Assembly: GCA_046735335.1 (NCBI GenBank)
Contig: JBKPTE010000060.1
Location: 1,125-65,124, forward strand
Length of the DNA: 64,000 bases
Source of the DNA: Acidobacteriota bacterium
Lineage (GTDB): Bacteria; Acidobacteriota; Vicinamibacteria; Vicinamibacterales; 2-12-FULL-66-21
Reading direction: 5' to 3'
The position numbers and the translations under genes are program-made. Below the pieces are notes generated by a model, which made no database searches, had not been told where the DNA came from, and was given only the letters and a program-made list of their open reading frames with translations. This document shows positions 1 through 61,516 of the stretch, one piece after another (the first letter of the stretch is position 1; each line of letters opens with the position of its first letter).

Positions 1-852
1 GGGGAGACACGGGTTGCCACGTGCACGGACTGCCATGGGGCGCATGGTGTGCGAACCCGGCAGGATCCCGCCTCTCCCGTCGCGCCGCTGCACGTTGTCG
101 CCACGTGCGCGCGATGCCATTCGGATCGCGAGAGGATGGACGCGTTCCACCTGCCCGACGCGCCGGACGACTGGAGGCACAGCGTCCACGCTGCGGCGCT
201 CAACGCAGGCGATCTGTCGGCGCCGACCTGCAGCACGTGCCACAGCGGCCACGGTCCGCTTCCCGACGGCGCTGCGCGTCTCGACGAAGTCTGCTGGCAG
301 TGCCACGTCCGCGAAGCAGACCTGTACAAAGCAAGCCCGAAGAAGAAGCTGTTCGACGAAACGGATCACCCGGGGTGCGTCACGTGTCACGAGGCCCACA
401 AGATCGAGAAGCCGGCGGACAGTTTCATCGGCATCAAAGGGTCGGCGGTGTGCGCCGTGTGCCACGATGCGGATATGAAGGGCGCGAAGGAAATTGCGCT
501 GGTTCAGCAGGGCCTGGCGCACCTCACTCAAAGCATGAACAGCGCCAGTGTTGTGATGGATCGGGCCGAGCGGGCCGGAATGCTCGTCGATGACGGCCGC
601 GATGCGCTGCGGGACGCGCGTGAGCGGCAGATTCAAGCGCGAGTGGCCGTTCACACGTTCACGGCCGCGCCGTTCAGCGCGTCGGCCAATGCCGGGGTGA
701 AGGACGCGCAGCGCGCGGAACGGGCCGCGTACGACGCGCTCGCCGAACTGCAGTTCCGCCGGAAGGGGCTCGCTGTGGCGACCGTCCTGATCGTTGGCTT
801 CCTCGTGACGCTGTGGATCAAGATCAGGCGCCTGCCGCCCGCGAGCGAATAG
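1..852 (+). CDS. multihaem c-type cytochrome, 5' end outside the window, C-terminal membrane anchor
   Basis: Frame 1 is open from nt 1 (GETRVATCTDCH...). Six CxxCH motifs lie in the window (CTDCH, CARCH, CSTCH, CWQCH, CVTCH, CAVCH), arranged as three paired-CxxCH units. A helical region is followed by a hydrophobic helix GLAVATVLIVGFLVTLWI and then KIRRLPP. Stop at 850-852. Confidence 0.85.
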   Translation, partial: GETRVATCTDCHGAHGVRTRQDPASPVAPLHVVATCARCHSDRERMDAFHLPDAPDDWRHSVHAAALNAGDLSAPTCSTCHSGHGPLPDGAARLDEVCWQCHVREADLYKASPKKKLFDETDHPGCVTCHEAHKIEKPADSFIGIKGSAVCAVCHDADMKGAKEIALVQQGLAHLTQSMNSASVVMDRAERAGMLVDDGRDALRDARERQIQARVAVHTFTAAPFSASANAGVKDAQRAERAAYDALAELQFRRKGLAVATVLIVGFLVTLWIKIRRLPPASE

Positions 853-864
853 CCCGCGACTCAG

Positions 865-3552
865 TCAAAAGCTCATCACGTACGAGAACCCGAACACGCT
901 CACCTTGTACTTGAACGGCTGCTCGTTCGTCGGCAGCACTCCGCTGAGCGTGCCGGCGCCTGTCGACATTCCCTCGTACATCCAGTCGCTGGACGACATC
1001 TGCAGGTAGGCATAGGAAATCTTCAGAGACCGGGACTTGGCAATCGGCACCGTACCGGCAGCCCGGAACTCCGCGGTGTTGGACGTGACGATCGGTAGCG
1101 GGGAGGCGGGAATGAAGTAGGCGGCAATCGTCGTCGGAGGCCCGCCGGCGCCATTGAGCACGTTGTTCGCCCAGTTGCCGCCCGAAACATTGTCGGTCGA
1201 CTGGGCGCGGGCGAGGGTCAGCATGCCGGTGAACGCAACGATCCCGACCTTTTTTGTGAGATCGAACCCGACCGTGTGGACCCGGTCGCGGGTGTCGGAC
1301 GACCAGTTGAGGCAAGGGTCCAACTTGTTATGGTTGTTCCGCTCCTGAAGCGTGGCGAACGAATCGCACGCGTTACCCGCGAGGAAGATCGCACCAGGCT
1401 GGCCGTTGGCAATCGTGGCGGCGTTGCTGTTGGCGGTGTACGTGTTGCCGGCGCTGACGCCGGCCTGCCGCTCGTACGTATAGAAGACGTCGGCGCTGAG
1501 CGTGTCGCTCGGCATGTACGCGGCGTCGATGTCTGCGGTCCAGCCTTTCGCGTTCTGCAGCCCGTAAGTGGAGCCCGGATAGTCGTCCCGGTTGAAGTTG
1601 ACGCCGCCCTGAAACGAGTACGATTCACCAGCCTGCCAGGCGAGAGACGATCGGATCTGATCGCGATCGCGGTCCGCGACCCAGTAGCGCCGCAGCCCCC
1701 GCAATTCGCTGATGCGATTGTTGTTCGCGTACTGCGCGTTCGCCAGTGCGCTGTTGCCTGGAAAGAACACGTTCATGTTGCCGGTCGTTGCCGCAAACCC
1801 GAGGGGAGGTCCCCACCCGTTCCAGCCGTTCGCGTTCATGAAGCTGACGGCCGTTGCCCCTCCGGTTGCGGACGCCGGGCTGACGCCCGCGAATGGCACG
1901 AGCGCGAGGAAGGCGTTCTCGTTATAGGCGGGTGCCCGGCGCATCGCATGGGCGTAACCGGCACGCGCGGTGATCGCCGACCGTATCGTCGCGTGCCAGT
2001 CGGCCCGGGCCGTCTGTTGATTGGTCCTCGCGGCGTCCTCGCAGTCGATCCATGCGCCCGGACACGCGCGATTGAGGCGCTCGAAATCGTAGCCCGCCTT
2101 CACGCCCTGCACGCTGGTCAGCTTGTAATCGACGTCAAGCGACACCTGGTGGGAGGTCCGGCTGTATGGCCGATTCGCGTTTGCGTTCTGCGCGAGGACG
2201 AGGCCGAACGGATTGTTCGGGCCAGCCACGAAGTTGTTGTTCACGGCCGGCGATTCGCCCGCATCCGAGTACTGAAACAAGTGGATGGGCGTTCTGTTGT
2301 CGCGATCCTCGAGCCGGTAGGAAACGGCCACGTTCAGGCTCTTCCGCGGTCGATTCGTGAACTTGGCGTGAAACAGCCGGCTCACGACGAGCGCGTCGGG
2401 CGACGATACGGGTACAACTGGAGTCGTCGCATCCGTCAGAAACGCTTCGTTCTGAGACGCGCGGCCGTAGGAGCCATCCGCAGTGATCCTGCCCGTGGCG
2501 CCCACCTTCAAGGCCGCGCTGCCGGAGAGCTGGCTGAACATGTTGTTCGGAGCGCTGCTCATCGTGTTCACGGTGCCGCCGCTCGTTGCCCAGTTCTGCC
2601 ACGACATGAACGGAACGTGATTCGTGAAGAACGAACCATAGTAGCCCGCCTGCAGGAACGCTCGTTTGCCGGTGTAGTGAATCGCGGTGTCGACTTGGTT
2701 GTGGTTGTTGTCGATTGGATCGGGAACGATCGTGGCGATGTCCCCGCCCGTGTTGCGCGACACCGTCCCCATCGGCTTGGATCCCTCCTTATGCTCTGGG
2801 CGGATGTCCGCGTCGACGGCCCAACGTTCGTCGAAGTGGTACGTGATGGCGGCGAGGGCAGACGTTCTCGTCGTGAAGATCTTGACGTCGTGAAAGGCCG
2901 CCAGGTCGGCCGCGGCCGCGGCGTTCACGAGGGCAATCTGCGCGCCGGTCGGCTGGATGAGCGCTCCCTGATTCGTCGCGCCGGTGCCAAGGTACGGCGC
3001 GGCGCCATTTGCCGGAACGAGACCCCTGGCGCTCAGTGTGTTGCCGGCGGGCGAGGCAATTGTCGGCACGATCCACGTGGGCGGCAGCGTGAGCACGTGC
3101 GACCCTGCGCCGTCGTAGATCGTTTGGTACGTATCGGAGCGATTCCGGCGAAGCTGGCCGAACGCGCCGATGATGCGATACCGGCCCTGTGTGCCGAATT
3201 CCGCAAACGCACTGCGGGTATCGAGTCCAAGGTCGCGCCCCTCGAGGCGCCAGCGCCGCGCGCTCGGGCTGTCGTACGCCGTCCGATCGCGCAGATTGAC
3301 GTTGCCCAGCGCGAACACACCGCTGCGATAGAGGCCGTTGTATTCACCGGCCTTGAACGAGCCGTCAGTCGCGCCCAGACCGCCCACCTCGACCGCATTG
3401 AGAAAGACGGGCGCCTCCGCGTCCTGGTGCTCCTGCTGCGCCTCTTGAGCGGCGACCACCTTCGCCGCGGCCGCAGAGAGGAGCACGGCCAGTGCGATGT
3501 GAACCGCCGCGATAGCCGGGTGCAGCGCCGGAGCCGAAGCCGATGTCCTCAT
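865..3552 (-). CDS. MtrB/PioB-family decahaem-associated outer-membrane beta-barrel protein
   Basis: 895 aa. Signal peptide (AAVHIALAVLLSAAAAKVVAAQE). The N-terminal region GSFKAGEYNGLYRSGVF...RWRLEGRDLGLDTRSAFAEFGTQGRYRI...LTLPPTW matches the remembered MtrB/PioB family signature. Alternating beta-strand composition and a C-terminal aromatic residue (YVMSF). Lies 22 nt downstream of the decahaem gene. Confidence 0.85.
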   Translation of the reverse strand: MRTSASAPALHPAIAAVHIALAVLLSAAAAKVVAAQEAQQEHQDAEAPVFLNAVEVGGLGATDGSFKAGEYNGLYRSGVFALGNVNLRDRTAYDSPSARRWRLEGRDLGLDTRSAFAEFGTQGRYRIIGAFGQLRRNRSDTYQTIYDGAGSHVLTLPPTWIVPTIASPAGNTLSARGLVPANGAAPYLGTGATNQGALIQPTGAQIALVNAAAAADLAAFHDVKIFTTRTSALAAITYHFDERWAVDADIRPEHKEGSKPMGTVSRNTGGDIATIVPDPIDNNHNQVDTAIHYTGKRAFLQAGYYGSFFTNHVPFMSWQNWATSGGTVNTMSSAPNNMFSQLSGSAALKVGATGRITADGSYGRASQNEAFLTDATTPVVPVSSPDALVVSRLFHAKFTNRPRKSLNVAVSYRLEDRDNRTPIHLFQYSDAGESPAVNNNFVAGPNNPFGLVLAQNANANRPYSRTSHQVSLDVDYKLTSVQGVKAGYDFERLNRACPGAWIDCEDAARTNQQTARADWHATIRSAITARAGYAHAMRRAPAYNENAFLALVPFAGVSPASATGGATAVSFMNANGWNGWGPPLGFAATTGNMNVFFPGNSALANAQYANNNRISELRGLRRYWVADRDRDQIRSSLAWQAGESYSFQGGVNFNRDDYPGSTYGLQNAKGWTADIDAAYMPSDTLSADVFYTYERQAGVSAGNTYTANSNAATIANGQPGAIFLAGNACDSFATLQERNNHNKLDPCLNWSSDTRDRVHTVGFDLTKKVGIVAFTGMLTLARAQSTDNVSGGNWANNVLNGAGGPPTTIAAYFIPASPLPIVTSNTAEFRAAGTVPIAKSRSLKISYAYLQMSSSDWMYEGMSTGAGTLSGVLPTNEQPFKYKVSVFGFSYVMSF

Positions 3553-3573
3553 CGTGGATACCTCGACCTGCGG

Positions 3574-4692
3574 TCAACGCTGGAATTTGGCGCCGGCCGG
3601 ATGATTGGAGCCGTGGACCAGCACGTGACAGTTCAGGCACGCGCGCGCCGCGAGCTGTGCCCGCGGCGACGCTGCGCCGGGCTGCTGCAGCCCACGCGCA
3701 GTGGTGACGCCGCCGCCTGCCAGGTTTGCACCGCTATTGATCTGCGCCGCGTGATCGCCCGTGTGGCACTGCTGGCAGAGCAGCGGCGGTCTCGTCTTCA
3801 GAAGCGACGGGTTCGTCGATCCGTGCGGTGTGTGACACGTGGTGCAGTCGTCCGCCACCGGCGCGTGCTCCCACAGGAATGGGCCGCGCTTCTCCGCGTG
3901 GCACGTGTAGCAAGTCTCGTTGACGGAGTTCTTCACCAGGAGCTTCGGTCCCGTGGACCCATGTGGGTTGTGGCAGTCGGAGCACACCATCTTGGGCGCG
4001 CTGGCAAGGCTCGTCGTCGCGAGCGGGTGCGCCGAGATCCGGCGCGTCTGGGCACGCTGCTCCTTATGACAGGTGAAACACACTTGCGCCTGCGTCGCGC
4101 GGTTCAGCACCTTTTGTTCGGTCGCGTGTACGGTGTGGCAATCCGTGCAGGCGATGTTGCGCATCTCGTGCTGGCTTCCCGTCCAGTGCATCCGAAGCCC
4201 GCCCTCGTGACACGTGACGCAGATCCCGTTCCTGACGGGCACCGGCGACGCATCACGGCCGCTGAACACCACCGCGGTCGGGTTCATCGTTGGCTCCGCG
4301 ATATGCGCGGCGCTGGCGCCATGACACGACTCGCACTGATGTTGCGCCTGCGGCGTGCGGGGATCCGCATTGACACCGTGGCGCGACTGCAGGATGAGAG
4401 TACTGGGGGCGCTGCTGTGGCAGTCGAGGCAAGCCTTCTCGCCCGTCGGCGCATATCCCGAAGGCGGCTGTTGCGGCGGCGCGGGCGTGGGGGGGGCCTG
4501 TCCCGCTATACGCGTCCCACGCGGTGCGGGAATTTCCCCTGTTGCGGGGGATTTTCCCCGCGTCGCTGGTGCTGCCGTACCCGAAGAAGCGCTGACGCTC
4601 ACCCCGCTGTAGGCAATCAGGGAGGCGAGGGAAATGACCAACCCGTAGATAACGCCGCCGATTGCGCCTGACGATCGCCGGGGTGGAGTCAT
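3574..4692 (-). CDS. periplasmic decahaem c-type cytochrome, MtrA/PioA/DmsE family
   Basis: 372 aa. Exactly ten CxxCH motifs (CLDCH, CESCH, CVTCH, CTDCH, CFTCH, CSDCH, CYTCH, CTTCH, CQQCH, CLNCH). N-terminal signal/anchor helix followed by a Pro/Ala-rich linker (PPTPAPPQQPPSGYAP) before the first haem. Confidence 0.9.
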   Translation of the reverse strand: MTPPRRSSGAIGGVIYGLVISLASLIAYSGVSVSASSGTAAPATRGKSPATGEIPAPRGTRIAGQAPPTPAPPQQPPSGYAPTGEKACLDCHSSAPSTLILQSRHGVNADPRTPQAQHQCESCHGASAAHIAEPTMNPTAVVFSGRDASPVPVRNGICVTCHEGGLRMHWTGSQHEMRNIACTDCHTVHATEQKVLNRATQAQVCFTCHKEQRAQTRRISAHPLATTSLASAPKMVCSDCHNPHGSTGPKLLVKNSVNETCYTCHAEKRGPFLWEHAPVADDCTTCHTPHGSTNPSLLKTRPPLLCQQCHTGDHAAQINSGANLAGGGVTTARGLQQPGAASPRAQLAARACLNCHVLVHGSNHPAGAKFQR

Positions 4693-4837
4693 GTTCGCTC
4701 CCGGAGTGTGGCAGCTGCCGCCACCGGCCGGGGCAATTGCCGTGCCCGCGGCAGGCGCGCGTTGACGTGTTCAGATCCGAGAATTCCTGGGGAACGCCGG
4801 CGGTGTTCGCCGCGTCTCCAAAGTGCCACGAGCTGCG

Positions 4838-5063
4838 ATGAAGTACATCCGCCTGGCGTATCTCGAGCGCCGCAAGCGTACGCGACGGAAATTCTCCGTC
4901 GTTGACGGCCGTTCGCGGAAACGAGGCGCAACTCGCGGGTTTCTACCTGCTCGACGCGCCGGACAGCAACGCGGCGATCGAGGCTGCTGCCCAGCGATCG
5001 CGCCTTGAGGCGGAAGGACAGCAGGCGGGCTCGGTGCTTGACCGCCCCTTCAGTGCTGGCTAG
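4838..5063 (+). pseudogene. degraded YciI-like (DGPF-domain) gene remnant
   Basis: Starts MKYIRLAYLE (YciI-like N-terminus). The hallmark DGPFAET-EAQLAGFYLLDAPDSNAAIEAAAQ...GSVLDRPF can be read only by assuming two 1-nt deletions, at about 4910 and about 4922, taking the frame from 2 to 1 to 0. The frame arithmetic is self-consistent. Only about 22 codons separate MKY from DG, far fewer than I recall for intact members, so an internal deletion is also likely. Confidence 0.45.
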
Positions 5064-5117
5064 CATTCGTACCATGCGTGGTGCCGCGGTCAACCGGCCG
5101 AATCTGAAGTAGGGACG

Positions 5118-5915
5118 ATGCCGCAAGGCGCCGTGAGTGCTGTCGCCGAACGCGCGGTGCGCCATGATCGAGCGCTGGCGCTGCTCGCGATTGCCGCGAT
5201 CACGGTGCTCTCCTGGATCTATCTGGTCAGGATGGCGTCGATGATGACTGCGGCGGCCGGCGAGCGCGCGATGCACGCCGCGATGGGCATGCCTGAAATG
5301 GCAGCATGGGGGCCCGCCGAGCTCCTCATGCTGTTTCTCATGTGGGCGGTCATGATGACGGGCATGATGCTGCCGTCCGCGGCGCCGCTCATCCTGCTCG
5401 TGATCGGCACGTATCGCCGCCGCGGCGATCGCGCGCGCCTCCTCACGTTCGCCTTCGCGTCCGGGTATCTCGTCGCGTGGACGGGGTTCAGCGCGATCGC
5501 CGCGTCGCTCCAATTGCTGCTTCATCGCGCGGCCCTGCTCTCGCCTTCGATGTCGGCGACATCCGTGTTGCTGGGCGGAGCGATGCTGCTGGCTGCCGGC
5601 GTCTATCAATGGCTTCCGATCAAAGGGGCGTGCCTGACGCACTGCCGATCGCCTCTCGCCTTTCTCGGAACGCATTGGCGTGACGGGGTTCGCGGTGCGC
5701 TCGCGATGGGACTCCGGCACGGCGCGTTCTGCATCGGCTGCTGCTGGGCATTGATGCTCCTGCTCTTCGCGGCAGGGGTGATGAACCTGTTCTGGGTCGG
5801 CGCAGTCGCGGCATTCGTGCTGGTGGAAAAGCTCGCGCCCGGCGGCGGACGCATCGGCCGGATTGCCGGCGTGCTGCTGGTCGCGTGGGGAGCCTGGATC
5901 CTCGCCTCGGTGTAG
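5118..5915 (+). CDS. DUF2182-family predicted metal-binding integral membrane protein
   Basis: 265 aa, multi-pass hydrophobic protein, Met-rich (MASMMTAAAGERAMHAAMGMPEMAAW...MLFLMWAVMMTGMMLPS). Typical partner of DUF1326 immediately downstream. Confidence 0.75.
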   Translation: MPQGAVSAVAERAVRHDRALALLAIAAITVLSWIYLVRMASMMTAAAGERAMHAAMGMPEMAAWGPAELLMLFLMWAVMMTGMMLPSAAPLILLVIGTYRRRGDRARLLTFAFASGYLVAWTGFSAIAASLQLLLHRAALLSPSMSATSVLLGGAMLLAAGVYQWLPIKGACLTHCRSPLAFLGTHWRDGVRGALAMGLRHGAFCIGCCWALMLLLFAAGVMNLFWVGAVAAFVLVEKLAPGGGRIGRIAGVLLVAWGAWILASV

Positions 5916-5951
5916 CGCACCGCTTCAGAGGTGCCGCGTTCGGAGGACTTT

Positions 5952-6596
5952 ATGAACGACGTCCCACGATGGAGTGTCACGGGCGACTGGTTCGACACGT
6001 GCAGCTGCAGCATTCCCTGTCCCTGCACGTTCGCGCAGCCCCCGACGAACGATGCCTGCGAAGGCGTCCTCGCGTGGCATATCAGGACGGGCCGCTACGG
6101 CGACGTGCGGCTCGACGGCCTGAACGTGATGGCCCTCGGCTTCTTCAGGGGGAACATCTGGGAGGGCAAGACGAAGGTGTCGATGGCGATCTTCATCGAC
6201 GAGCGCGCCGACGAACGTCAGCGCCAGTCCCTGCAGATGATCTTCGGCGGCCGCGCGGGCGGCTGGCCCGGCACGTTCGCCAGCTTCATCGGCGACGTGC
6301 GCGGAATGGAGTTCGCGCGCATCGACTTCCACGTGGACGACGATCTCGCGTCGTGGCGCGCGGAGATCCCGGGCCGTGTCACGGCCGCAGCGGAAGCGCT
6401 CGGCGGACCGACGACCCCGCCCGGCAAGCGCGTACAGGTGCACAATGCAGGCGGCGCCGAGGTGGGCCCCGGCGCGATCGCCACGTACGGCAGGTCGACG
6501 GCCGATCGCGCCGACGCCTTCGGGTTCACGTGGGATCGGAGCGGCCGTTCGAGCAAGCACATGCGCTTCGACTGGTCCGGGCCCGACTCGGCGTGA
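5952..6596 (+). CDS. DUF1326 domain-containing protein
   Basis: MNDVPRWSVTGDWFDTCSCSIPCPCTF... carries the Cys cluster characteristic of DUF1326. GGAGGA Shine-Dalgarno 5 nt upstream of the ATG at 5952. The track ORF starts at 5931, but that start has no RBS. Confidence 0.8.
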   Translation: MNDVPRWSVTGDWFDTCSCSIPCPCTFAQPPTNDACEGVLAWHIRTGRYGDVRLDGLNVMALGFFRGNIWEGKTKVSMAIFIDERADERQRQSLQMIFGGRAGGWPGTFASFIGDVRGMEFARIDFHVDDDLASWRAEIPGRVTAAAEALGGPTTPPGKRVQVHNAGGAEVGPGAIATYGRSTADRADAFGFTWDRSGRSSKHMRFDWSGPDSA

Positions 6597-6657
6597 GGTC
6601 ATGCCGTAACGGCAGACGTTGGCGCCGGGCAGCCTCATCGGTTAACGTGATCCTCGG

Positions 6658-6864
6658 ATGTCCGACATCTACTTCGACGGAGATCCGGCGACCGACAGCG
6701 CCCGCCGCCATCTCGAACGCGTGCTGAAGGAAGAATCGCCGCGGCGCCGGCGATGGCCCTGGATCCTGACGGCCATTGCGGGCGCGGGCGTGTGGTACTT
6801 CTGGCCGCGCAGCCCGCGAGAACCCCGTAAAGCGCAGGCGGCAGCGGAACGGGAGCAGCGCTAG
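6658..6864 (+). CDS. small hypothetical membrane protein
   Basis: 68-aa ORF with one hydrophobic helix (WPWILTAIAGAGVWYFW) flanked by basic residues. No recognisable family. Coding status uncertain. Confidence 0.3.
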   Translation: MSDIYFDGDPATDSARRHLERVLKEESPRRRRWPWILTAIAGAGVWYFWPRSPREPRKAQAAAEREQR

Positions 6865-6898
6865 GCTCGAACCCGTTGCTCGAACCCGTTGCTCGAAG
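6865..6898. repeat. tandem 13-nt direct repeat (2.6 copies of GCTCGAACCCGTT)
   Basis: Read directly: gctcgaacccgtt gctcgaacccgtt gctcgaag. It starts immediately after the stop of the small ORF and lies upstream of the 6925 gene. Confidence 0.9.
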
Positions 6899-6924
6899 AC
6901 CGGACAGGGAGGTATAACGTCCCT

Positions 6925-7464
6925 ATGCCTCAGCGTTTCCTTCGCTTCCTCTTCACGCTCGCGCTCATCGCCCTGCCGCTCGCGGTAGGATCCATCCAAG
7001 CGGACGCTCCGCAGACGCCTTCAGGAAAGGACACCGTCCTGAACGCCGCGGACATCTCGCCGAAGCTTTTCCCGGAACAGGTGTTCTACCGTGGACGCGT
7101 CGCGCCGGTACAGATGCGCAACACGGGCGGCGTGCATTTCGCGGACGATCTCTACGTGCTCGCCGGTCTCGTCGACGTCTCCGGATATTCGAGCGGCGTG
7201 CGGGAGAAGTATCAGGGATATCTCCTGACGGAGGTCCCGCTCGACGTCGACGGGCACGCGCTCCAGCCGGGCGCATACGGGATCGGTTTTCTCCAGGGCG
7301 CGAAATTCGTGGTGACGGACCTCGGCTCGAAGACTGTGCTGGAGGTGTCCGGCAATCGCGATGCGCAGCTGAAGATGCCGATGCCTCTCCAGGTTCAAGC
7401 CGCGAAAGACGCTTACCGTCTCTACATCGGCCGGGACTACGTGACGCTCAAGAGGACCAGATAG
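6925..7464 (+). CDS. secreted hypothetical protein
   Basis: Signal peptide MPQRFLRFLFTLALIALPLAVGSIQADA. GGGAGG upstream of the ATG at 6925. No family recognised. Confidence 0.6.
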   Translation: MPQRFLRFLFTLALIALPLAVGSIQADAPQTPSGKDTVLNAADISPKLFPEQVFYRGRVAPVQMRNTGGVHFADDLYVLAGLVDVSGYSSGVREKYQGYLLTEVPLDVDGHALQPGAYGIGFLQGAKFVVTDLGSKTVLEVSGNRDAQLKMPMPLQVQAAKDAYRLYIGRDYVTLKRTR

Positions 7465-7467
7465 CGG

Positions 7468-8292
7468 TCACCCGAACTCCGGACCGGTAATCGCGTACAC
7501 CAGCGGCGGCTCGCCTGGCGCGAGGAATGCGCCTCTGTACATTCGCGCGAAGGAACGCTCGATCGCGAATCCGAGATCGGACAATGCGCGTCTCCACGCC
7601 TGTTGAGCGTCGGGCACGTCGATGAAGAACGTTCGGCCCGCGTGTTCCGCAAGGCATGCCTCGACGAGCGCCCGAGCCGACTCAGGGCTGTCGGCGACCA
7701 GCGGACCGAGCTGGTCCCGGTTGTGGCCGCGGCGGCCGAACAGGTACCCGCGCAGTCCGCTGCCGCCGCGGATTGCCCACGCATATTCCGGGGCCTCGGA
7801 AGCGAAGCGCTCGAGCAGACCTCGGCGCGAGGCGCCGAAGGCGCGTCGATCCATCGCGTCAACCGCGAGCCAATCCCCTGGTTCGAAGCGACGTACGGCT
7901 GGCGCCCGCGTGCCCGCGAGTCGCGCGCCCTCCACGAACCATCGCGCGAGACCGTACTCCGCGGAAAAGCCGAGCGTTCGGTACAACGGCTCACCGAGCG
8001 CTGTCGCGTCCAGCCGCGCGGTCACACCGTCGGGGACCAACGCCAGGCCGCTCTTGAGCAGACGCGTCCCGACACCCCTCCCGCGAGCGGCCGGGTCGAC
8101 GAGGACCATCGAAAGCCACGTGAAGGGCCCATACGGCAGCGTCGCGACGCTCCCGATGACGCGCCCGTCCTCCTCGGCGACGAGCGCGCCGCGCGGTGCG
8201 GACGTCAGAAAGCTCTGCCAGTCGCGTTCGGTCTGGTTCCATCCGCTCGCGCGGCAGAGCGCCAGCCCGGCGCCGATGTCGCGGGGCAGCAT
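7468..8292 (-). CDS. GNAT-family N-acetyltransferase
   Basis: Core motif VLVDPAARGRGVGTRLLK (acetyl-CoA binding Q/RxxGxG/A) with a C-terminal YitH-like extension. ATG at 8292 preferred. The GTG at 8358 would overlap the divergent gene start. Confidence 0.8.
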   Translation of the reverse strand: MLPRDIGAGLALCRASGWNQTERDWQSFLTSAPRGALVAEEDGRVIGSVATLPYGPFTWLSMVLVDPAARGRGVGTRLLKSGLALVPDGVTARLDATALGEPLYRTLGFSAEYGLARWFVEGARLAGTRAPAVRRFEPGDWLAVDAMDRRAFGASRRGLLERFASEAPEYAWAIRGGSGLRGYLFGRRGHNRDQLGPLVADSPESARALVEACLAEHAGRTFFIDVPDAQQAWRRALSDLGFAIERSFARMYRGAFLAPGEPPLVYAITGPEFG

Positions 8293-8342
8293 GTGACGGA
8301 TTGAAACGCCGAAGGGCACCAAGGCCTCATAATAGGCCCCCC

Positions 8343-9377
8343 ATGGCACTGCCGGCACAGATCCGCGACGTCGCGCATCTCGAAGATCTGCTGAGCGAAC
8401 CCTCCCCCGCGGCGATTGACGCGGTGCGGCGCGTCGATGGCGACGTCATCGTGCTCGGCGTTGCCGGCAAGATGGGACCCACGCTGGCCCGCATGGCGCG
8501 GCGGGCGATGGACGCTGCAGGCGTCCGGCATCACGTGATCGGCGTCTCCCGCTTTTCCTCTCCGGATCAGCAGCGCGCGCTCGACGCGCACGGCATCGAG
8601 ACGATTCGCTGCGATCTGCTCGACGAGCGGGCGCTCGCGCGCCTGCCGGATGCACCGAACGTGATCTACATGGCCGGGCGCAAGTTCGGATCGACGGGCA
8701 ACGAGCCGCTCACGTGGGCCATGAACACGCATGTTCCGGCGCTCGTCTGCTCCCGCTACCGCCGCAGCCGCATCGTCGCCTTCTCGACGGGGAACGTCTA
8801 CGGCCTCACGCCCCGCGGACGGGGCGGCTCGCGCGAAGAAGATTCCCCCGCGCCCGTTGGCGAGTACGCCATGAGCTGTCTCGGCCGGGAGCGCATGATC
8901 GAGTACTTCAGCGGCGCCTTCGGCATTCCCGTGGCCATCCTCCGGCTGAATTACGCAACGGAGATGCGGTACGGCGTGCTCGTCGATCTTGCGTCGAGCG
9001 TCTCGCAGCGGCAGCCTGTCGACGTGACGATGGGGTATTTCAACGTGATCTGGCAGGCGGACGCCAATGCCATGGCGCTCGCGGCACTCGAGCACGCCGC
9101 GTCGCCGCCGCTCATCGTGAACGTCGCCGGTGAAGAGGAAGCGAGCGTCCGCGCGACGTGCACCGCGCTCGGACGGAGCCTCGACATCCCAGTCAGCTTC
9201 ACCGGCCGAGAAGCCGAAGGCGCGCTGCTGAGCAACGGGTCCCGTGGATGGGCGCTCCTCGGCCGGCCGCGCGTCGACCTGGCGCAGCTCCTCTCGTGGA
9301 CGGCGGACTGGATCCGCCGCGACGGCGAACAACTCGGCAAGCCGACGCATTTCGAATCGCGCGCCGGACGGTTCTGA
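8343..9377 (+). CDS. NAD-dependent epimerase/dehydratase family protein
   Basis: Rossmann motif VIVLGVAGKMGPTLAR near the N-terminus. Length about 344 aa. ATG at 8343. Confidence 0.75.
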   Translation: MALPAQIRDVAHLEDLLSEPSPAAIDAVRRVDGDVIVLGVAGKMGPTLARMARRAMDAAGVRHHVIGVSRFSSPDQQRALDAHGIETIRCDLLDERALARLPDAPNVIYMAGRKFGSTGNEPLTWAMNTHVPALVCSRYRRSRIVAFSTGNVYGLTPRGRGGSREEDSPAPVGEYAMSCLGRERMIEYFSGAFGIPVAILRLNYATEMRYGVLVDLASSVSQRQPVDVTMGYFNVIWQADANAMALAALEHAASPPLIVNVAGEEEASVRATCTALGRSLDIPVSFTGREAEGALLSNGSRGWALLGRPRVDLAQLLSWTADWIRRDGEQLGKPTHFESRAGRF

Positions 9378-10441
9378 TGACCCACCTGCCTCCCCGAATC
9401 GGCGCCGCGCTCCGGGACGGACGGGTGATCCCTGCGCACCCGCTGGCGCTCGACGAAAGCGGGAAGTTCGACGAGCGCAGCCAGCGCGCGCTGACCCGCT
9501 ACTACTCCGCCGCGGGCGCCGGCGGGCTTGCGGTCGGTGTCCACACGACGCAGTTCGCGATCCGCGAGGCATCGGTCGGGCTGTTCGAACCCGTGCTCAC
9601 GATCGCGGCCGAAGAGATGGACCACGCCGATGCGCGCAGGACGGAGCCGCTCATCCGGATCGGCGGAATCTGCGGCGCCACCGATCAGGCGCTGCGCGAG
9701 GCCGACACGCTCGCGCGCCTTCGGTATCACGCCGGACTCCTGAGTCTTGCCGCGCTGCGCAGCGCCAGTGACGACGTCCTCATCGCGCACTGCGCATCCG
9801 TGGCGGAGCGCATTCCTCTCGTCGGCTTCTATCTGCAGGCTTCGGTCGGGGGACGCCCTCTTTCGTACAGGTTCTGGCGCCGTCTTGCCGAGCTCCCGCG
9901 TGTCGTCGCGATCAAGATCGCGCCCTTCAACCGCTATCAGACGATTGACGTCCTCCGGGCCGTAATCGACGCCGGACGCGACGACATCATCCTCTACACG
10001 GGCAATGACGATTCGATCGTCTACGATCTCGTGACGCCGTTCAGACTCGGTGCCGGCGAACTGCAGGCCGAACGCCGCATCGTCGGCGGCCTGCTCGGAC
10101 ACTGGGCCGTGTGGACGAAGTGCGCGGTGCAACTGCTCGAAGACTGCCGCGCCGCGGGGCGCGGATCGTGTGTGCCCGCGGAACTGCTCCAGCGAGGCGC
10201 CCAGATCACCGATGCAAACGCGGCGTTCTTCGACCCGTCCAACAACTTCGCCGGCTGCATCGCCGGCATTCACGAGGTGCTGCGGCGGCAGGGTCTCGTG
10301 CGCAGCGTACGATGCCTCGATCCGGACGAGCGCATGAGTTCGGGACAGTCCGACGAGATCGATCGCGTATACCGGGCGTACCCCCATCTGGCGGACGATG
10401 ACTTCGTTCGCGAGCACCTCGACGAGTGGATGCGATGGTGA
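9377..10441 (+). CDS. dihydrodipicolinate synthase (DapA/NAL) family protein
   Basis: MTHLPPRIGAALRDGRVIPAHPLALDE...YYSAAGAGGLAVGVHTTQF resembles the TIM-barrel class I aldolase family. The start ATG shares one nucleotide with the upstream stop (TGATG). Confidence 0.65.
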   Translation: MTHLPPRIGAALRDGRVIPAHPLALDESGKFDERSQRALTRYYSAAGAGGLAVGVHTTQFAIREASVGLFEPVLTIAAEEMDHADARRTEPLIRIGGICGATDQALREADTLARLRYHAGLLSLAALRSASDDVLIAHCASVAERIPLVGFYLQASVGGRPLSYRFWRRLAELPRVVAIKIAPFNRYQTIDVLRAVIDAGRDDIILYTGNDDSIVYDLVTPFRLGAGELQAERRIVGGLLGHWAVWTKCAVQLLEDCRAAGRGSCVPAELLQRGAQITDANAAFFDPSNNFAGCIAGIHEVLRRQGLVRSVRCLDPDERMSSGQSDEIDRVYRAYPHLADDDFVREHLDEWMRW

Positions 10442-12235: not shown

Positions 12236-15200
12236 ATGTCCTCAGCGGCTTGGCGGTGTTCGTCTGCCTTCGTTGCCCTCGCGATCGTTGCATTCATCTG
12301 CGCGGTTCCAGGTCGAGCGGCCGCGCAGGTCCTGTATGGATCGATAGTCGGAGACGTCAAAGACTCTTCAGGCGCCGCCATGCCCGGCGCCACGGTGCTC
12401 GTCACCAACAACAACACCGGGTTCACCCGCGAGGCGGTGACCGACGGCGTTGGACACTTCAACCTCGCGGACCTGCCCGCGGGCGTTTATACGCTGAAGG
12501 CCACGCAACAGGGGTTCAGGACGTTCGAGCAGTCGCCGGTGACCGTCAACATCAACACCGTGACGCGGCTCAACATCAGCCTCGAGATCGGTGCGCTGGG
12601 GGACAACGTCACGGTGCGCGCCGAAGCGCCGGCGCTGCAGACGGAAACTGCGGAAGTCCACTCGAACCTGCTCGGGCAGGAGCTGACGAACCTTCCCGTG
12701 CCGCTCGGCGGAAATTACCAGCAGGTCTACCGGATGCTGCCCGGTTTCGCGCCGCCGGCCAACTCGCACTCCATCCCCACGAACCCGGCGCGTTCACTGG
12801 AGTTCAGCGTCAACGGCACGAGCGACGATCAGAACAACACCCGGATCGACGGCGTCAGCACCGCGAACATCCAGCTGCCGCACGTCGCGTCGTACATCCC
12901 GACCCTCGAGTCGATTCAGGAAGTCAACGTCGTCACCAGCAGCTTCGACGCGGAGCAGGGGCTCGCAGGCGGCGCGGCCATCAACGTCCAGACGCGCAGC
13001 GGCTCGAACGCGATGCACGGGTCGGGGTTCGAGTACTTCACGAACCAGGACCTGAAAGCGTGGCCGATGCGGTTCGACGATGTGGCGCTGAATACGGGCC
13101 CGAAGCCCAAGCAGAGCTACAACGAGTTTGGTGGCACGGTCGGCGGCCCGATCCGCAAGAACAAGGCGTTCTACTTCGTGAGCTACGAGTCGATCCGTGA
13201 CCACCGGGACGTGAGCAGGACCGTGTCGGTGCCGATGCCCGCGATGTTGAAGGGGGACTTCTCGCTTTCCCCGACGCCGATCTACGACCCGCTCACTGGA
13301 AATGCGGACGGGACCGGGCGGACGCAGTTCCAGGTGTTCCCGGGCGATCCGAACTACGCGCTCTGCAACACGGCGGCGAACCCGAGCTGCCTGAACATCC
13401 TCCCTGCCGCGCGGATGGATCCGATCGCTCAGAAGATCGCGAGCTACTTCCCGGCAAACAATCTGAACCGCGATCGGAACAACTACTTCGCGCAGGCGCC
13501 GTTCACGTTCGACCGGAACCAGGTCGACTCCAGGTTCGATTACAACGGCAACTCGAAGTTCAACATGGCGGGAACGTTCGGCATGCTGCACTATCGCGCG
13601 GTCACGCCGACGGTGTTCGGGGACACCGCCGTCGGCCGGCCGATCGGGGGGAGCAGCAATCCCGGCACCGGCCACGGCAACACGTATCGCGTGACGGTGA
13701 TGGGCACGTACATCTTCACCCCGACGTTCTTCATGGACGCGCACTACGGTTATGCAAAGCAGGGAACGAATTCGGAGCAACCCGGCCTCGGACAGAACTT
13801 CGGGCGCGACACGCTGGGCATTCCGGGCACGAACGGCACGCGCGCGTTCGAGAGCGGCTGGCCGACGTTCTCCTTCGCGGACTTCGCGACGATTGGAGTC
13901 AACGAAAACTTCATGCCCTACTACCGGCACGATCCGCAGTCGCAGTACGTCGTGAACTTTAATCTGATCAAGGGGCGGCACAACGTCCGGTTCGGAAGCG
14001 ATATATACGACATGGCGCTGAACCAGACGCAGGCGGAGTTCATCACGGGCGGCTTCGGCGCACAGGGTGGATTCGGGTTTGCCCGCGGCGTCACGGAACG
14101 GTGCGAGGCGTTGAACCCATCGACGGGCAATTGCGCGCAGACGTCGAGAGGTTCGTTTTACAACACGGCCGCAGCGTTCATGCTCGGCCAGGCCAGCAGC
14201 GCCGGACGGACGCTGCAGGTGCCGGACGTGTACCACCTCAAGGCGCGCCTGTACAGCAGCTATATCCGCGATCGCTGGACGGCTTCGGACAAGCTGACGG
14301 TCGATTACGGCACGCGGTGGGAGTATTTTCCCGTTCCGACCAGGCCCGATCGCGGAATCGAGTTCTATGACGTCGATACGGGGAAGGTCCTGCTCTGCGG
14401 TGTCGGCCCCACGCCAAAGGACTGCGGGATCGAGACCAGCAAAGCGCGATTCGGCCCGCGCGTTGGCGTGGCCTACCGATTCGCCGACAAGTGGGTCGCA
14501 CGCGCAGGCTACGGGCTGACGAACGATCCGTACGAAGGGATGGAGCTGATTCGGGCGAACTATCCGCTACTGATTCAGGTGAAGGAGGAGTCGCCCGACG
14601 GCCTGACGCCCGCGGCCACCCTCGCGCAGGGAATACCGGCCGTGCAGGTCCCTGCTCAAGGCAATGGCGTCCTGGACATCCCGAGCGATTACGCATGGCA
14701 AGGCTATCCGAAAGATCTGAACCGCGGATATATTCAGTCGTGGAACTTCACCATCCAGCGCGAGCTGCCGTGGAGCTTTACGGGACAGATCGGGTACGTC
14801 GCGACGCGCACCACACGCCAACTCGGACTGCTCGACATCAACGCGGGACAAGTCATCGGTGCCGGCGAAGACGGGCGGCCGCTCGTCGCGCGCTTCGGCA
14901 GGACCGCATCGACGGTCCTCCTGCAGCCGATCGGCGACGGGAAGTACGATTCCATGCAGGCGCAACTACAGCGCCGGTTCGTGGACGGCCTCAGCCTTGC
15001 CGTGAACTACACGTTGGGCCGAGCGCTGAGCCCGAACGAGAACAGCTCGTGGCTGGTCGGAGATCATGGGACGCAGGCGCTTGCGTACCTGGATCGCAAT
15101 CTGGCGCCCACCAGCACGGATCGACGCCACAACGTCGGGATTACGAGCGTCTGGCAGATTCCCGTGGGAAAGGGCCGACACTGGCTCAACGACAGCGGCG

Positions 15201-60062: not shown

Positions 60063-61516
60063 TCTTCACGCGCCGGCAGTTTCTGCGCCAGGCGTCGGCC
60101 CTCCCCATCGGTGCGCTTGCGAGGCCAACGCTCGCGATCGCCGCCCCAAAACCCACCGACATCCGTGTCGACGAAGTTCTTCACGGCTACGAAGACTTCG
60201 TCTACCGCGCGCCGTACAAGTTCGGCGGCCGCGTCGTCGATCGCGTCACGCTGCTGAACGTCCGCTGCCGCGTCACCACCCGGAAGGGGCAGACCGCCTG
60301 GGGCTTCGGGTCGATGACGATGGGGAACGTGTGGGCGTTTCCGTCGGCGACGATGTCGTACGACACGACGCTCGAGGCGATGAAGGCACTGGCCGCGCGT
60401 GTCGCGCGGCTGACGGGTAGCTGCCGTGAAATCGGACACCCGCTCGACATCGCGCAGGTTCTCGAGCCCGAGTGCCTGAAGGCCGCTGCGGACGTTTCAG
60501 CGGAGCGCAAGCTGACCAAGCCCATCCCCAAGCTCTGCACGCTCGTTGTCGTCAGCGCGTTCGACGCGGCGCTGCACGATGCGTTCGGAAAGGTGCACCG
60601 CCGGAACGTCTACGACACGTTCGGGCCGGATCTGATGACGCACGACGTGTCACGGTATCTCGGTCCCGAGTTCCGAGGCGTGCGGCTGGATAGAGTCCTC
60701 CTGCCGAAGCGGCGCGAGCGCATCCCGGTGTTTCACAGCGTCGGCGGCCTCGATCCGCTCGAGACGAAAGACATCGAGCATCCCGTCGGTGACGGCTTGC
60801 CCGAAACGCTGGCGGACTGGATGCGGCGCGACGGCATCGTACGGATCAAGATCAAGCTGCAGGGCGATGCCCTCGCATCGGACGTCGAGCGGACGCTGGC
60901 GATTGACCGGATCGCGTCTGCCGTGCAGGCGCACCGGCCGGCCGACGACCTCGCGTACAGCCTCGATTTCAACGAGCGCTGCCCCAACGTTCAGTACGTG
61001 CTCGAGTTCCTGAACCGGATTGGTGCAGCGTCACCCGAAGGGTTCAAGCGGATTCTCTACGTCGAGCAGCCGACGGCGCGCGATCTGAAAGCGAACAGGC
61101 AGAACGTGATGCACGAAGCCGCGAAGTTGCGGCCCGTCGTCATCGACGAGTCGCTGACCGATCTCGAAAGCCTCCTGCTCGCGCGGGACATGGGCTACAC
61201 GGGCGTGGCGCTCAAGGCGTGCAAGGGCCAGAGCCAGACGGTGCTGATGGCCGCGGCCGCGCAGAAGTACAAGATGTTCGTCTGCGTGCAGGATCTCACG
61301 TGTCCGGGCGCATCGCTGATCCAGTCGGTCGGGATCTCGGCTCGCGTGCCCGCGGTTGCCGGCATCGAAGCAAACGCGCGGGAGTACGTTCCGGCAGCCA
61401 ATGCGCGATGGCAGGACCGCTTTCCCGGCATTTTCACGATCAGCGACGGATACATGCGCACCGCGGACATCGGCGGCCCGGGTCTCGGCATCCCTGACGA
61501 CATGGTGCCCAGATGA
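60059..61516 (+). CDS. enolase-superfamily (mandelate racemase / muconate lactonizing enzyme-like) protein with Tat-type signal
   Basis: GTG start overlapping the upstream stop (ATGTGA). N-terminus [30 protein letters not shown]. Barrel motifs in order: RIKIKL (KxK), LDFNERC (metal Asp), YVEQP (Glu), VIDES (Asp/Glu), LKACKG (Lys). Confidence 0.75.

Follow-up and report, generated by a model that had tools for sequence, protein, structure and literature searches.

Near the left end of the window, the 64,000-nucleotide stretch of DNA analysed here, two tandem genes on the minus strand encode a cytochrome and an outer-membrane barrel. The first (3574-4692) specifies a 372-residue MtrA/MtoA-like decahaem c-type cytochrome, which comprises a signal-peptide-like N terminus (residues 1-36) that includes the sole hydrophobic segment of the protein (residues 7-30), a proline-rich spacer (residues 37-84; 12 prolines in 48 residues) and a ten-haem core (residues 85-372). 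The protein contains exactly ten CxxCH motifs, as a preliminary description of the locus had stated, and no CX3-4CH motif; all 20 of its cysteines lie inside the CxxCH motifs, and there are 23 histidines. It scores 290.4 bits on the curated DmsE/MtrA decahaem model TIGR03508 (cutoff 192.2) and aligns end to end with MtrA of Shewanella baltica (6R2Q_A; E = 1.4e-72, 42.9% identity). All ten motif cysteines and histidines are conserved across 83 homologues, as are ten histidines outside the motifs, which are putative distal ligands and all align to histidines in MtrA of PDB 6R2Q. The occurrence of ten CxxCH motifs in 372 residues and this conservation exclude a chance origin. A Shine-Dalgarno-like GGGAG lies about 6 nt upstream of the ATG, and the pair is presumably transcribed from a promoter in the intergenic region between this gene and a divergent PpoB2/DUF2182 gene (4693-5117); a minus-strand promoter scan of the region found nothing exceeding the shuffled background.

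After a spacer on the same strand (3553-3573), in which a second Shine-Dalgarno-like sequence, GAGG, precedes the next ATG by about 9 nt, follows the gene for an 895-residue outer-membrane beta-barrel of the MtrB/PioB family (865-3552, minus strand). The tandem order is thus as previously given, but the gap is 21 nt rather than 22. The family resemblance had been recognized in the N-terminal region and proves to be broader, since the match to PF11854 (321.6 bits) spans residues 66-895; the curated MtrB/PioB model TIGR03509 gives 301 bits against a cutoff of 240. The N terminus is signal-peptide-like, and the C terminus (...YVMSF) ends in an aromatic Phe. The AF2 model, of only moderate confidence (mean pLDDT 64, with loops under 50), has about 26 strands, with short turns following even-numbered strands and long loops following odd-numbered ones; two cysteine pairs that are invariant in 34 homologues, C497/C504 and C729/C747, are located in long predicted extracellular loops. 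The top Foldseek match of the model is MtrB (6R2Q_B; E = 6e-32, TM 0.76).

The decahaem and barrel genes are read as one operon. Their tight spacing is repeated in homologous loci, their pairing is invariant (86 of 86 genome loci), and a comparison with more than 270 homologues shows both proteins to be intact and full-length. With both curated cutoffs passed and MtrB as the best structural match of the barrel, the assignment to the porin-cytochrome families made in the preliminary description stands, and the pair is an ordinary member of the MtrA/DmsE decahaem and MtrB/PioB barrel families. It should be noted that the core pair is not new: public pipelines already annotate it automatically as MtrB/PioB family, and homologues in Acidobacteria have been mentioned (PMC10654088, PMC8805035), so that the novelty is weaker than was implied by calling such conduits poorly characterised in this phylum.

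The barrel gene is separated by 12 nt between convergent stop codons (853-864), in which no terminator-like hairpin was found, from the 3' part of an octahaem cytochrome c gene on the plus strand (1-852; codons 108-390 and the stop), whose reading frame is already open at position 1 of the window. Six of the eight CxxCH motifs, a helical stalk and a C-terminal membrane anchor fall inside the window. The gene is the last in a Rieske/cytochrome b/octahaem c operon whose beginning lies outside the window on the left, beyond the view of the preliminary description; the remainder is supplied by locus L001, which is 99.955% identical to the window over 13,290 bp and extends 9 kb further to the left. 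The genes of this operon overlap by 1-4 nt. Their products are a protein with the 2Fe-2S boxes of Rieske proteins, a cytochrome b of b6-like type and the C-terminally anchored c-type subunit, which has a signal peptide and a cytochrome c1-like anchor and whose C-terminal helices and helical stalk AF2 models with confidence. This subunit carries eight haems here and six or seven in L008 and L003; no curated family matched it above cutoff. On the ExtP model, which has a cutoff of 290, the cytochrome b reaches 202.7 bits. The operon and the pair are convergent in the window and so are not co-transcribed there.

No other open reading frame with at least three CxxCH motifs was found between 5 and 64 kb of the window, and the only c-type cytochromes in the 9-kb left extension of L001 are the octahaem c and one monohaem cytochrome c; the acidobacterial monohaem cytochromes are of a class-I type other than MtoD. 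The lack of an MtrC/OmcA-type gene, previously remarked on for the operon, extends to about 70 kb around the pair (window and L001). Neither MtoD nor CymA/MtoC homologues were found among the neighbours of the pair in the window and L001, no HiPIP (PioC) among its called neighbours, no NapC/CymA-type tetrahaem of about 200 residues downstream of the barrel, no molybdoenzyme genes near the pair in the window or L001, and no visible autotrophy genes in the window. The host is a soil acidobacterium of Vicinamibacterales-like affiliation, in keeping with its earlier placement, as the nearest relatives of the conduit are found in Acidobacteriota/Vicinamibacterales MAGs and the RecQ of the window shares 78% identity with a protein from a Vicinamibacterales MAG.

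What is new is the context, in which complex-III-type genes adjoin the conduit instead of the usual proteobacterial partner genes. Fourteen distinct Acidobacteriota-type loci have flanks of at least 6 kb on each side; a bc module lies within 10 kb of the conduit in 3 of them and an ACIII/Qrc-like module in 9, giving 12 loci with a quinone-interacting module and two (L007 and L011) with neither; the bc module is also present on two further metagenome contigs. In contrast, neither module adjoins any of 71 proteobacterial conduits, which carry MtoD/CymA-like genes in their place (an approximately 200-residue tetrahaem open reading frame in 34 loci and a small monohaem one in 49), but as conduit loci are phylogenetically related, independent events are fewer than these counts. 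Adjacency of conduit and bc module occurs in six distinct lineages and in three gene orders: convergent (the window, L003 and the P0005 contig), Rieske-cytochrome b-multihaem c-decahaem-barrel (L008 and L108, with gaps of 7 and 20 nt in the latter) and decahaem-barrel-cytochrome c-Rieske-cytochrome b-octahaem (the P0014 contig), the intergenic gaps in the conduit-bc operons being 7-52 nt. The sister loci have an act/qrc gene order (pentahaem c, molybdopterin-like, FeS and NrfD subunits), and these ACIII-like clusters score best on Qrc models, on QrcB and QrcC for the molybdopterin-like and 4Fe-4S subunits. No description of genetic linkage of bc or ACIII/Qrc modules to an MtrAB-type conduit was found in the literature searched.

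What the analysis establishes (the families, the fold, the haem ligands, the gene order and the synteny conserved among loci) points, with a probability of about 60%, to a two-component porin-cytochrome electron conduit that is coupled to the adjacent bc module. The decahaem would be exported by Sec, carry ten bis-His haems and be threaded through the 26-strand barrel; if this complex assembles as predicted, a continuous haem chain would join periplasm to cell surface. Since no MtrC/OmcA-type surface cytochrome is encoded nearby, electron exchange would most likely take place at the barrel mouth with soluble, chelated or colloidal redox species and involve no extracellular cytochrome, the candidate substrates being Fe(II)/Fe(III), Mn and humic quinones; a gene for a surface cytochrome may lie in another part of the genome. 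The periplasmic partner, we infer, would be the membrane-anchored octahaem c of the Rieske/cytochrome b complex, in putative contact with the decahaem and possibly aided by the nearby monohaem cytochrome c, and the conduit would thereby be coupled through a complex-III-type module to the quinone pool and/or terminal oxidases. If so, a bc route would replace the MtoD plus CymA/MtoC or PioC routes of Proteobacteria. Sequence alone cannot give the direction of electron flow; inward flow, from the oxidation of extracellular donors, is put at slightly under even odds, outward flow, as extracellular respiration, a little lower, and flow in both directions or of another kind is improbable.

Inward flow would correspond to a PioAB/MtoAB-type Fe(II)-oxidising conduit, a plausible but tentative assignment, in which the decahaem accepts electrons from extracellular Fe(II) or a different donor and periplasmic c-type cytochromes relay them either to a terminal oxidase or, uphill and by way of the bc complex, to the quinone pool. 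The missing MtrC gene is consistent with this, as are the inclusion of complex III or ACIII in published models of Fe(II) oxidisers (PMC5566968, PMC10654088) and the Qrc-like scores of the sister clusters, Qrc being a quinone-reducing complex. The decahaems of this acidobacterial clade also nest among Beta- and Gammaproteobacterial clusters of the mtoD-mtoA-mtoB-cymA pattern, including those of Gallionellaceae, in a tree of only the 80 most similar genome matches with an assumed root, and the haem core is 57-66% identical to Mto-type proteobacterial clusters versus 43-46% to Shewanella MtrA. On the other hand, the window has no visible autotrophy genes, and cultured Vicinamibacteria are, as far as is known, aerobic heterotrophs. 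Moreover, MtoA and PioA do not form function-specific clades and MtrCAB is reversible (PMC8805035), the MtoD, CymA/MtoC and PioC partners are lacking near the pair, and the PioA N-terminal signature is missing (PMC6831781); the oxidising direction favored in the preliminary description is therefore not upheld.

Outward flow, a somewhat weaker possibility, would have the Rieske/cytochrome b complex oxidise menaquinol, and octahaem c and decahaem pass the electrons outwards to Fe(III), Mn(IV) or humic acceptors in soluble or colloidal form, so that extracellular respiration would be coupled to a Q-cycle. Quinol to cytochrome c is the normal direction of such complexes, and the L108 and L008 operons read naturally as a quinol:extracellular-acceptor chain. 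Where bc operons include multihaem c subunits, these are typical of anaerobic chains (PMC5317091, citing Dibrova 2013). A reductive precedent exists in the ext cluster of Geobacter (PMC5877670), and Acidobacteriota MAGs with porin-cytochrome genes have been interpreted as putative metal reducers (PMC13264449). Against this, the locus has no surface cytochrome for mineral contact, its closest relatives are uptake-type clusters, the bc operon resembles a housekeeping aerobic complex, and a Rieske centre would have to donate electrons to multihaem proteins that are probably of lower potential.

It is less likely that the adjacency is coincidental or historical, the pair being a functional MtrAB-type wire with unlinked periplasmic and inner-membrane partners. 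The convergent arrangement in the window would allow this, bc linkage is found in just 4 of the 49 distinct conduit loci of the DNA set and in 2 further contigs, and the linked loci may stem from one ancestral juxtaposition. Since the Rieske/cytochrome b/octahaem operon also occurs without any conduit in L087-L089 and belongs to a larger family than the barrel (753 versus 275 matches), it is probably the ordinary complex III of the lineage, which weakens the inference from adjacency. However, the adjacency persists across the three gene orders, including closely spaced operons, quinone-interacting modules accompany 12 of 14 Acidobacteriota-type conduits but none of the proteobacterial ones, and the probability that chance would place the two within 10 kb of each other in a genome of several megabases is roughly estimated at well under 1%. 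Most Acidobacteriota conduits adjoin an ACIII/Qrc-like cluster and not a bc operon, which counts against bc wiring.

There is little likelihood of a DmsEF-type conduit whose electrons go to a terminal reductase in the outer membrane or outside the cell, for instance a molybdoenzyme, in place of metals. The best NCBIfam model of the decahaem bears the DmsE name, and molybdopterin-like and 4Fe-4S subunits are encoded downstream of the barrel in sister loci, but their partners there are a pentahaem c and a membrane subunit, NrfD, and their own best-scoring models are QrcB/QrcC, which indicates an inner-membrane ACIII/Qrc-type complex and not DmsAB; the window and L001 have no molybdoenzyme genes near the pair. 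That the 895-residue protein is a generic porin, an alginate-export-type barrel or a TonB-dependent receptor next to the cytochrome by chance has nothing in its favor except that it is a large beta-barrel, and is refuted by PF11854, TIGR03509 and Foldseek (TonB-dependent receptors about 1e-7, TM about 0.4), Plug and TonB domains being missing and the pairing invariant.

The pair and its neighbouring operon can be compared with several known systems. MtoAB of Sideroxydans/Gallionellaceae (mtoD-mtoA-mtoB-cymA/mtoC) likewise consists of a decahaem and an MtrB/PioB barrel encoded by two genes without MtrC, and Mto-type clusters, for which MAG loci served as proxies for the ES-1 reference sequences, contain the nearest non-acidobacterial relatives of the decahaem (41-60% identity over the tblastn segment, up to 66% in the haem core), with the same ten haem motifs and distal histidines. 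However, barrel identity is only 21-46%, and a Rieske/cytochrome b/octahaem c operon is present instead of an MtoD-type monohaem protein and a tetrahaem after the barrel. Shewanella MtrCAB (PDB 6R2Q) shares the end-to-end MtrA alignment and the 26-strand MtrB fold, but the window barrel is about 200 residues longer, the extra residues being in the predicted extracellular loops with the cysteine pairs, and neither MtrC/OmcA nor, nearby, CymA is encoded. The window barrel also differs from that of Shewanella in having no N-terminal CXXC, a motif characteristic of metal-reducing Gammaproteobacteria. PioABC of Rhodopseudomonas palustris TIE-1 also has a decahaem and barrel and works without an extracellular cytochrome, but PioA-type proteins have an N-terminal extension of about 200 residues and an internal hydrophobic region (PMC6831781), both of which the window decahaem lacks; PioC is not a neighbour, and the host is not known to be phototrophic. 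Of the PioAB/MtoAB resemblance suggested earlier, the sequence affinity of the decahaem to Mto-type clusters is borne out, whereas a PioA-like character based on the proline-rich linker is not: the spacer has 48 residues, lacks a second hydrophobic segment and is missing from most close homologues.

The Group 5 MtrCAB clusters of Acidobacteriia/Bryobacterales (Baker et al. 2022, PMC8805035) belong to the same phylum and MtrAB core family but have MtrC and a downstream tetrahaem, with no inner-membrane quinone oxidoreductase nearby. In the present, Vicinamibacterales-like clade, by contrast, there is no MtrC, and bc-type or ACIII/Qrc-like modules flank the conduit. The extHIJKLMNOPQS cluster of Geobacter sulfurreducens, to which selenite/tellurite reduction has been assigned, is a precedent for combining a porin, multihaem cytochromes and Rieske/cytochrome b, but its porin, ExtI, is described as phosphate-porin-like and not of the MtrB/PioB family (PMC5877670), and the cytochromes differ too. 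In subunit make-up, the operon of the window matches Rieske/cytochrome b complexes with a multihaem c, and the sister loci match ACIII/Qrc.

The decahaem cytochrome gene (3574-4692, minus strand, 372 aa) and the gene directly downstream of it, which encodes an MtrB/PioB-type barrel (865-3552, minus strand, 895 aa), constitute a complete and conserved pair of the MtrAB/MtoAB type with a conserved neighbourhood. Both ORFs, which the preliminary description had recognized as such a pair, are real and lie above the cutoffs of TIGR03508, PF11854, and TIGR03509; GGGAG (decahaem) and GAGG (barrel) are present at Shine-Dalgarno distance from the ATG codons, and the third-position GC of 0.78-0.82 is the same as in the neighbouring genes. 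The pairing is common to the homologous loci, and the gap between the two genes is 21 nt, one less than the 22 nt previously given. The count of exactly ten CxxCH motifs in the 372-aa protein is borne out (residues 88, 120, 158, 182, 205, 237, 261, 283, 306, and 352); there are no variant haem motifs, and 20 of the 20 Cys lie within the ten. On the DmsE-family decahaem model TIGR03508 (cutoff 192.2) the protein reaches 290.4 bits, with residues 84-365 matching model positions 1-257 of 258, and its end-to-end alignment with Shewanella baltica MtrA (chain A of the solved Mtr complex, 6R2Q) has E=1.4e-72 and 42.9% identity. In an alignment of 83 family members the ten motifs are 100% conserved, and exactly ten His residues outside the motifs (H105, 130, 175, 189, 222, 244, 276, 290, 314, and 360) are conserved in at least 93%, all of which align with His in S. 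baltica MtrA; judged from the alignment, ten distal His and ten motifs are the pattern expected for ten bis-His haems.

Read by eye, the N terminus of the decahaem has an Arg-Arg, then residues 7-30 as a hydrophobic stretch, and VSA-S; it reads as a putative Sec signal, with export of the protein predicted. Residues 37-84, the spacer before the haems, include 12 Pro in 48 residues, and the Pro-rich linker noted earlier is therefore present, but its value as a PioA-like feature is lost (PMC6831781): the spacer is too short, the sole hydrophobic segment of the protein is the N-terminal one, with none inside the spacer, and the Pro-rich spacer is missing from most close homologues, for example those of three related conduit loci, L004-L006. 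It should be noted that the public (JGI) call for the decahaem on L001, a near-identical metagenome contig (9004-9717), is a 237-aa protein that starts at Met136 and lacks the signal peptide as well as haem motifs one and two; the full decahaem is the 372-aa ORF with the GGGAG ribosome-binding site, and surveys relying on the public call would count eight haems. In several other acidobacterial decahaems (L004 8947-9975, L006 8994-9989, L009, L012, and L015) the first haem site is CX3CH, such as CLKQCH or CLRECH, so that plain CxxCH counting yields nine.

A barrel that missed the MtrB/PioB models, which the preliminary description had named as a refuting outcome, is not what is seen: TIGR03509 gives 301 bits (cutoff 240.05), and PF11854 gives 321.6 bits (cutoff 23), with residues 66-895 matching model positions 7-635 of 635. 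An AlphaFold2 model built from 34 homologues (mean pLDDT 64, pTM 0.60) contains about 26 long strands with strand pLDDT of 85-95, and has short turns after the even-numbered and long loops after the odd-numbered strands, the usual outer-membrane topology; the C-terminal residue is Phe. The top Foldseek match of the model is MtrB (6R2Q, chain B; E=6e-32, target-normalised TM 0.76), followed by 22-strand TonB-dependent receptors (E about 1e-7, TM about 0.4). As modelled, the fold is MtrB-like, with about 26 strands against the 26 of MtrB in 6R2Q, and the HMM scores and Foldseek matches together rule out a generic porin, a TonB-dependent receptor, or an alginate-export barrel. The protein is ~200 residues longer than MtrB, the surplus being located in low-confidence predicted extracellular loops. 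Its only Cys residues, C497/C504 (CX6C) and C729/C747 (CX17C), are invariant in the 34 homologues; both pairs are in predicted extracellular loops and possibly form disulfides.

The exact proteins of the window are present on soil-metagenome contigs, and L001 is 99.955% identical to the window over 13.3 kb and adds 9 kb on the left. More than 270 barrel homologues have 52-63% identity. Automatic annotation labels most of them "MtrB/PioB family", and those few that bear an organism name come from Vicinamibacterales or Acidobacteriota MAGs. Likewise, the nine best conduit loci in a one-genome-per-species scan (63-73% identity) are all from Acidobacteriota/Vicinamibacteria MAGs, the next best being from Beta- and Gammaproteobacteria (41-60%), and the sole organism-named match of the window's RecQ is a Vicinamibacterales MAG protein (78% identity). 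Scans of the window for tRNA genes and Rfam matches found none, and a promoter/terminator scan gave nothing above background level. A neighbour-joining tree of 83 decahaem cores, drawn from the 80 most similar genome loci and including MtrA of 6R2Q, was read with an assumed Shewanella root and with Gallionellaceae and Burkholderiales MAG loci as proxies for authentic MtoA (ES-1) and PioA (TIE-1). Twelve acidobacterial cores group together in 40 of 40 bootstraps and nest among the proteobacterial ones, beside a Burkholderiales/Gallionellaceae/Sulfurifustaceae group. With sequences of that group core identity is 57-66%, against 45.6% with Shewanella MtrA. By itself, the two-gene core is nothing out of the ordinary: it belongs to the MtrAB/MtoAB/PioAB family, is already auto-annotated, and comes from an uncharacterised clade. 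The part deserving follow-up is a variant at the level of the pathway, with complex-III-class partners in place of MtoD, CymA, or PioC.

The left edge of the window holds the 3' end of an octahaem cytochrome c gene (1-852, plus strand; L001 12439-13611), whose stop codon is 12 nt from that of the barrel gene. It closes an operon that encodes three proteins: a Rieske protein with the boxes CTHLSC and CACHNG, a 357-aa b6-like cytochrome b with the Pfam domains Cytochrome_B and Cytochrom_B_C, and the octahaem cytochrome (390 aa in full); the genes overlap by 1-4 nt. These proteins score below the NCBIfam equivalog cutoffs (225.8 versus 325 for the b6 model), which marks the operon as a divergent member of the Rieske/cytochrome b complexes, and the cytochrome b reaches 202.7 bits on the ExtP model, under the cutoff of 290. 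Like cytochrome c1, the octahaem starts with a signal peptide and ends in a membrane anchor (TM helix). Its structural model is confident (pLDDT 81-97) only in helices 269-298 and 304-326 and in a long helix (329-384) whose end forms the anchor, the haem domain having pLDDT <50; as modelled, the helices would make up a stalk that lifts the haem domain clear of the membrane. Among the multihaem c homologues beside conduits, the count of haem motifs varies, from eight in the window and L108 to seven in L003 and six in L008. A monohaem cytochrome c gene adjoins the operon in divergent orientation, and its product resembles the cytochrome c that heads the bc operons of L088 and L089, two octahaem-centred loci; its identification as an MtoD equivalent is not supported, since the monohaem c of the window lineage falls outside the tight MtoD-like family, with at most marginal similarity to it.

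Other genes of the window were observed in related surroundings. A PQQ-dependent dehydrogenase with two N-terminal cytochrome c domains is encoded at 61513-63813 (plus strand), and similar genes occur near the bc operon of the metagenome contig P0005 and near the conduit in L006 (3477-5612); all of these may be periplasmic enzymes that feed electrons into the same pool of c-type cytochromes. A PpoB2/DUF2182 ("copper chaperone") membrane protein (5118-5915, plus strand) and a DUF1326 protein (5931-6596, plus strand) are divergent from the decahaem gene and, among the conduit loci, are confined to the window lineage (L001 and L002). An 1148-aa TonB-dependent-like outer-membrane protein with CarboxypepD_reg and OMP_b-brl_4 domains (12236-15682, plus strand) is of a type that recurs beside the bc operons in L087, L088, and the P0014 metagenome contig; since this is a common gene type in Acidobacteriota, the recurrence is probably incidental.

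Conduits adjoin a bc module in six distinct lineages and in three gene orders: convergent in the window, L003, and the P0005 contig; Rieske-cytochrome b-multihaem c-decahaem-barrel in L008 and L108 (gaps of 7 and 20 nt before the decahaem and barrel genes of L108); and decahaem-barrel-cytochrome c-Rieske-cytochrome b-octahaem in the P0014 contig (gaps of at most 52 nt). Most other acidobacterial conduits adjoin genes for a pentahaem cytochrome c and for molybdopterin-like, 4Fe-4S, and NrfD subunits with c-type domains, usually accompanied by a two-component system. By its gene order and by Qrc matches that fall below cutoff, this module resembles ACIII or Qrc; these sister clusters may instead encode a molybdoenzyme of the Psr/Phs type that is truly catalytic. 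Merging of duplicates left 49 distinct acidobacterial-type loci, 14 of them flanked by 6 kb or more on each side, of which 3 are linked to bc, 9 to ACIII/Qrc-like modules, and 2 to neither. No cytochrome b or Rieske gene is near any of 71 proteobacterial conduit loci. The loci are related by descent, so that independent adjacency events are fewer than the locus counts; the maintenance of adjacency through rearrangements and the shared single operons nevertheless argue, from gene order, for functional coupling. The bc complex itself is probably the ordinary complex III of the lineage, because the octahaem family outnumbers the barrel family (753 versus 275 matches) and because three octahaem-centred loci, L087-L089, contain the same (cytochrome c)-Rieske-cytochrome b-octahaem operon but lack a conduit within 10 kb of it. 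The reading of the operon as a conduit-specific paralogue is rejected on the ground of these conduit-free copies and because the octahaems of conduit-linked and unlinked loci are about equally distant from that of the window (54-59%).

Several of the sister loci contain further genes. Directly after the barrel gene in ACIII/Qrc-type loci is a gene for a conserved ~130-aa protein with one CxxCH and no Pfam or NCBIfam match (L006 12640-13050, plus strand; equivalents in L004, L005, L009, L010, L015, and L091-L116). An extra module of tetrahaem, 4Fe-4S, and NrfD genes lies upstream of the two-component system in L004 (3572-6209), L009 (from 4506), and L012 (from 4802), and loci of this type look like respiratory islands with two quinone-interacting modules. 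In L007, which has neither a bc nor an ACIII-like module, an 1148-aa ORF with nine CxxCH motifs just upstream of the decahaem gene (5953-9399, plus strand) may be a candidate large multihaem partner; the Acidobacteriota MAG concerned bears a second conduit (L009).

The partners of the characterized systems were sought in the same region. No other ORF with at least three CxxCH motifs is present in the window from 5 to 64 kb, and the 9 kb added by L001 contains none apart from the octahaem of the bc operon. With no multihaem ORF besides the truncated one at the left edge, there is no MtrC/OmcA gene and no CymA-like gene in the window, in agreement with the preliminary description as regards MtrC/OmcA. 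Neither an MtoD-type monohaem nor a NapC/CymA-type tetrahaem accompanies the pair in the window, no DmsAB molybdoenzyme genes are present in the window or L001, and HiPIP (pioC) is absent from the precomputed Pfam matches of the called genes within 10 kb.

In the proposed wiring, the decahaem would thread the barrel to form a haem wire across the outer membrane. In the absence of a surface cytochrome, the conduit would react at the mouth of the barrel, with soluble, chelated, or colloidal redox species. Its partner in the periplasm would be the octahaem, the stalked subunit of the Rieske/cytochrome b complex. We tentatively suggest (probability about 0.4) that Vicinamibacterales-like soil Acidobacteriota have an MtoAB-type wire plugged directly into complex III, in which the octahaem c, or the ACIII/Qrc-like pentahaem of the sister lineages, crosses the periplasm on a helical stalk and exchanges electrons with the decahaem. 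If true, conduits of the Mtr family would have a third connection to the inner membrane, in addition to those through CymA/MtoC and through PioC, and this would permit extracellular respiration coupled to the Q-cycle, or the passage of extracellular electrons straight into the aerobic chain, in a phylum that ranks among the most abundant in soil.

The direction of electron flow is not readable from sequence; MtoA and PioA form no function-specific clades, and MtrCAB is reversible (PMC8805035). Uptake is favoured by the Mto-type ancestry of the decahaem and by the absence of MtrC, the latter being the part of the earlier argument for a PioAB/MtoAB-type (oxidising) direction that stands now that the linker has been discounted, and we place inward flow just short of an even chance. 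Outward transfer, favoured by the forward direction of bc complexes, by the bc-to-conduit operons, and by the Geobacter precedent, is given somewhat less than even odds, and flow in both directions or some other arrangement appears improbable. This is a caution for metagenome surveys, in that homology alone is no basis for assigning "iron oxidation" or "iron reduction." If the coupling to complex III is real, it would link redox reactions of iron, manganese, or humics outside the cell to the central respiratory chain of soil bacteria that are abundant but poorly cultured, through a defined and testable gene set (Rieske, cytochrome b, octahaem c, decahaem, and barrel).

The acidobacterial clade lacks the customary partners in periplasm and inner membrane (MtoD, CymA/MtoC, and PioC), and the conduit is consistently beside complex-III-class modules, in some lineages within one operon. 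In Shewanella MtrCAB an MtrC/OmcA gene is clustered with mtrAB, whereas the window pair is without one. An N-terminal CXXC in MtrB is a signature of metal-reducing Gammaproteobacteria, but the window barrel lacks it, none of its four Cys being N-terminal. In DmsEFAB the decahaem-barrel pair is followed by DmsAB genes, which do not follow the window pair. In the typical proteobacterial Mto locus the gene for a small monohaem c comes first, followed by those for decahaem and barrel and, last, by one for a ~200-aa tetrahaem (the mtoD-mtoA-mtoB-cymA/mtoC pattern), and among the 71 proteobacterial conduit loci the tetrahaem is found in 34 and the small monohaem in 49. The PioA-type signature, a ~200-aa N-terminal extension with an internal hydrophobic region before haem 1 (PMC6831781), distinguishes PioABC from the window decahaem, in which the spacer is only 48 aa. 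Homologues of PioA/PioB reportedly occur widely among Proteobacteria and Acidobacteria (PMC10654088), MtrCAB including MtrC has been reported in five Acidobacteriia/Bryobacterales genomes with no inner-membrane quinone oxidoreductase nearby (PMC8805035), and Acidobacteriota MAGs that carry genes of the porin-cytochrome type have been described as putative metal reducers (PMC13264449). In the open-access literature we found no description of an MtrAB-family conduit linked to complex-III-type modules in Acidobacteria, and no paper on Vicinamibacteria and Mto, Mtr, or Pio that describes such a conduit. The closest precedent for a porin, multihaem cytochromes, and Rieske/cytochrome b in one cluster is extHIJKLMNOPQS of Geobacter, which uses a porin family other than that of the window barrel (PMC5877670).
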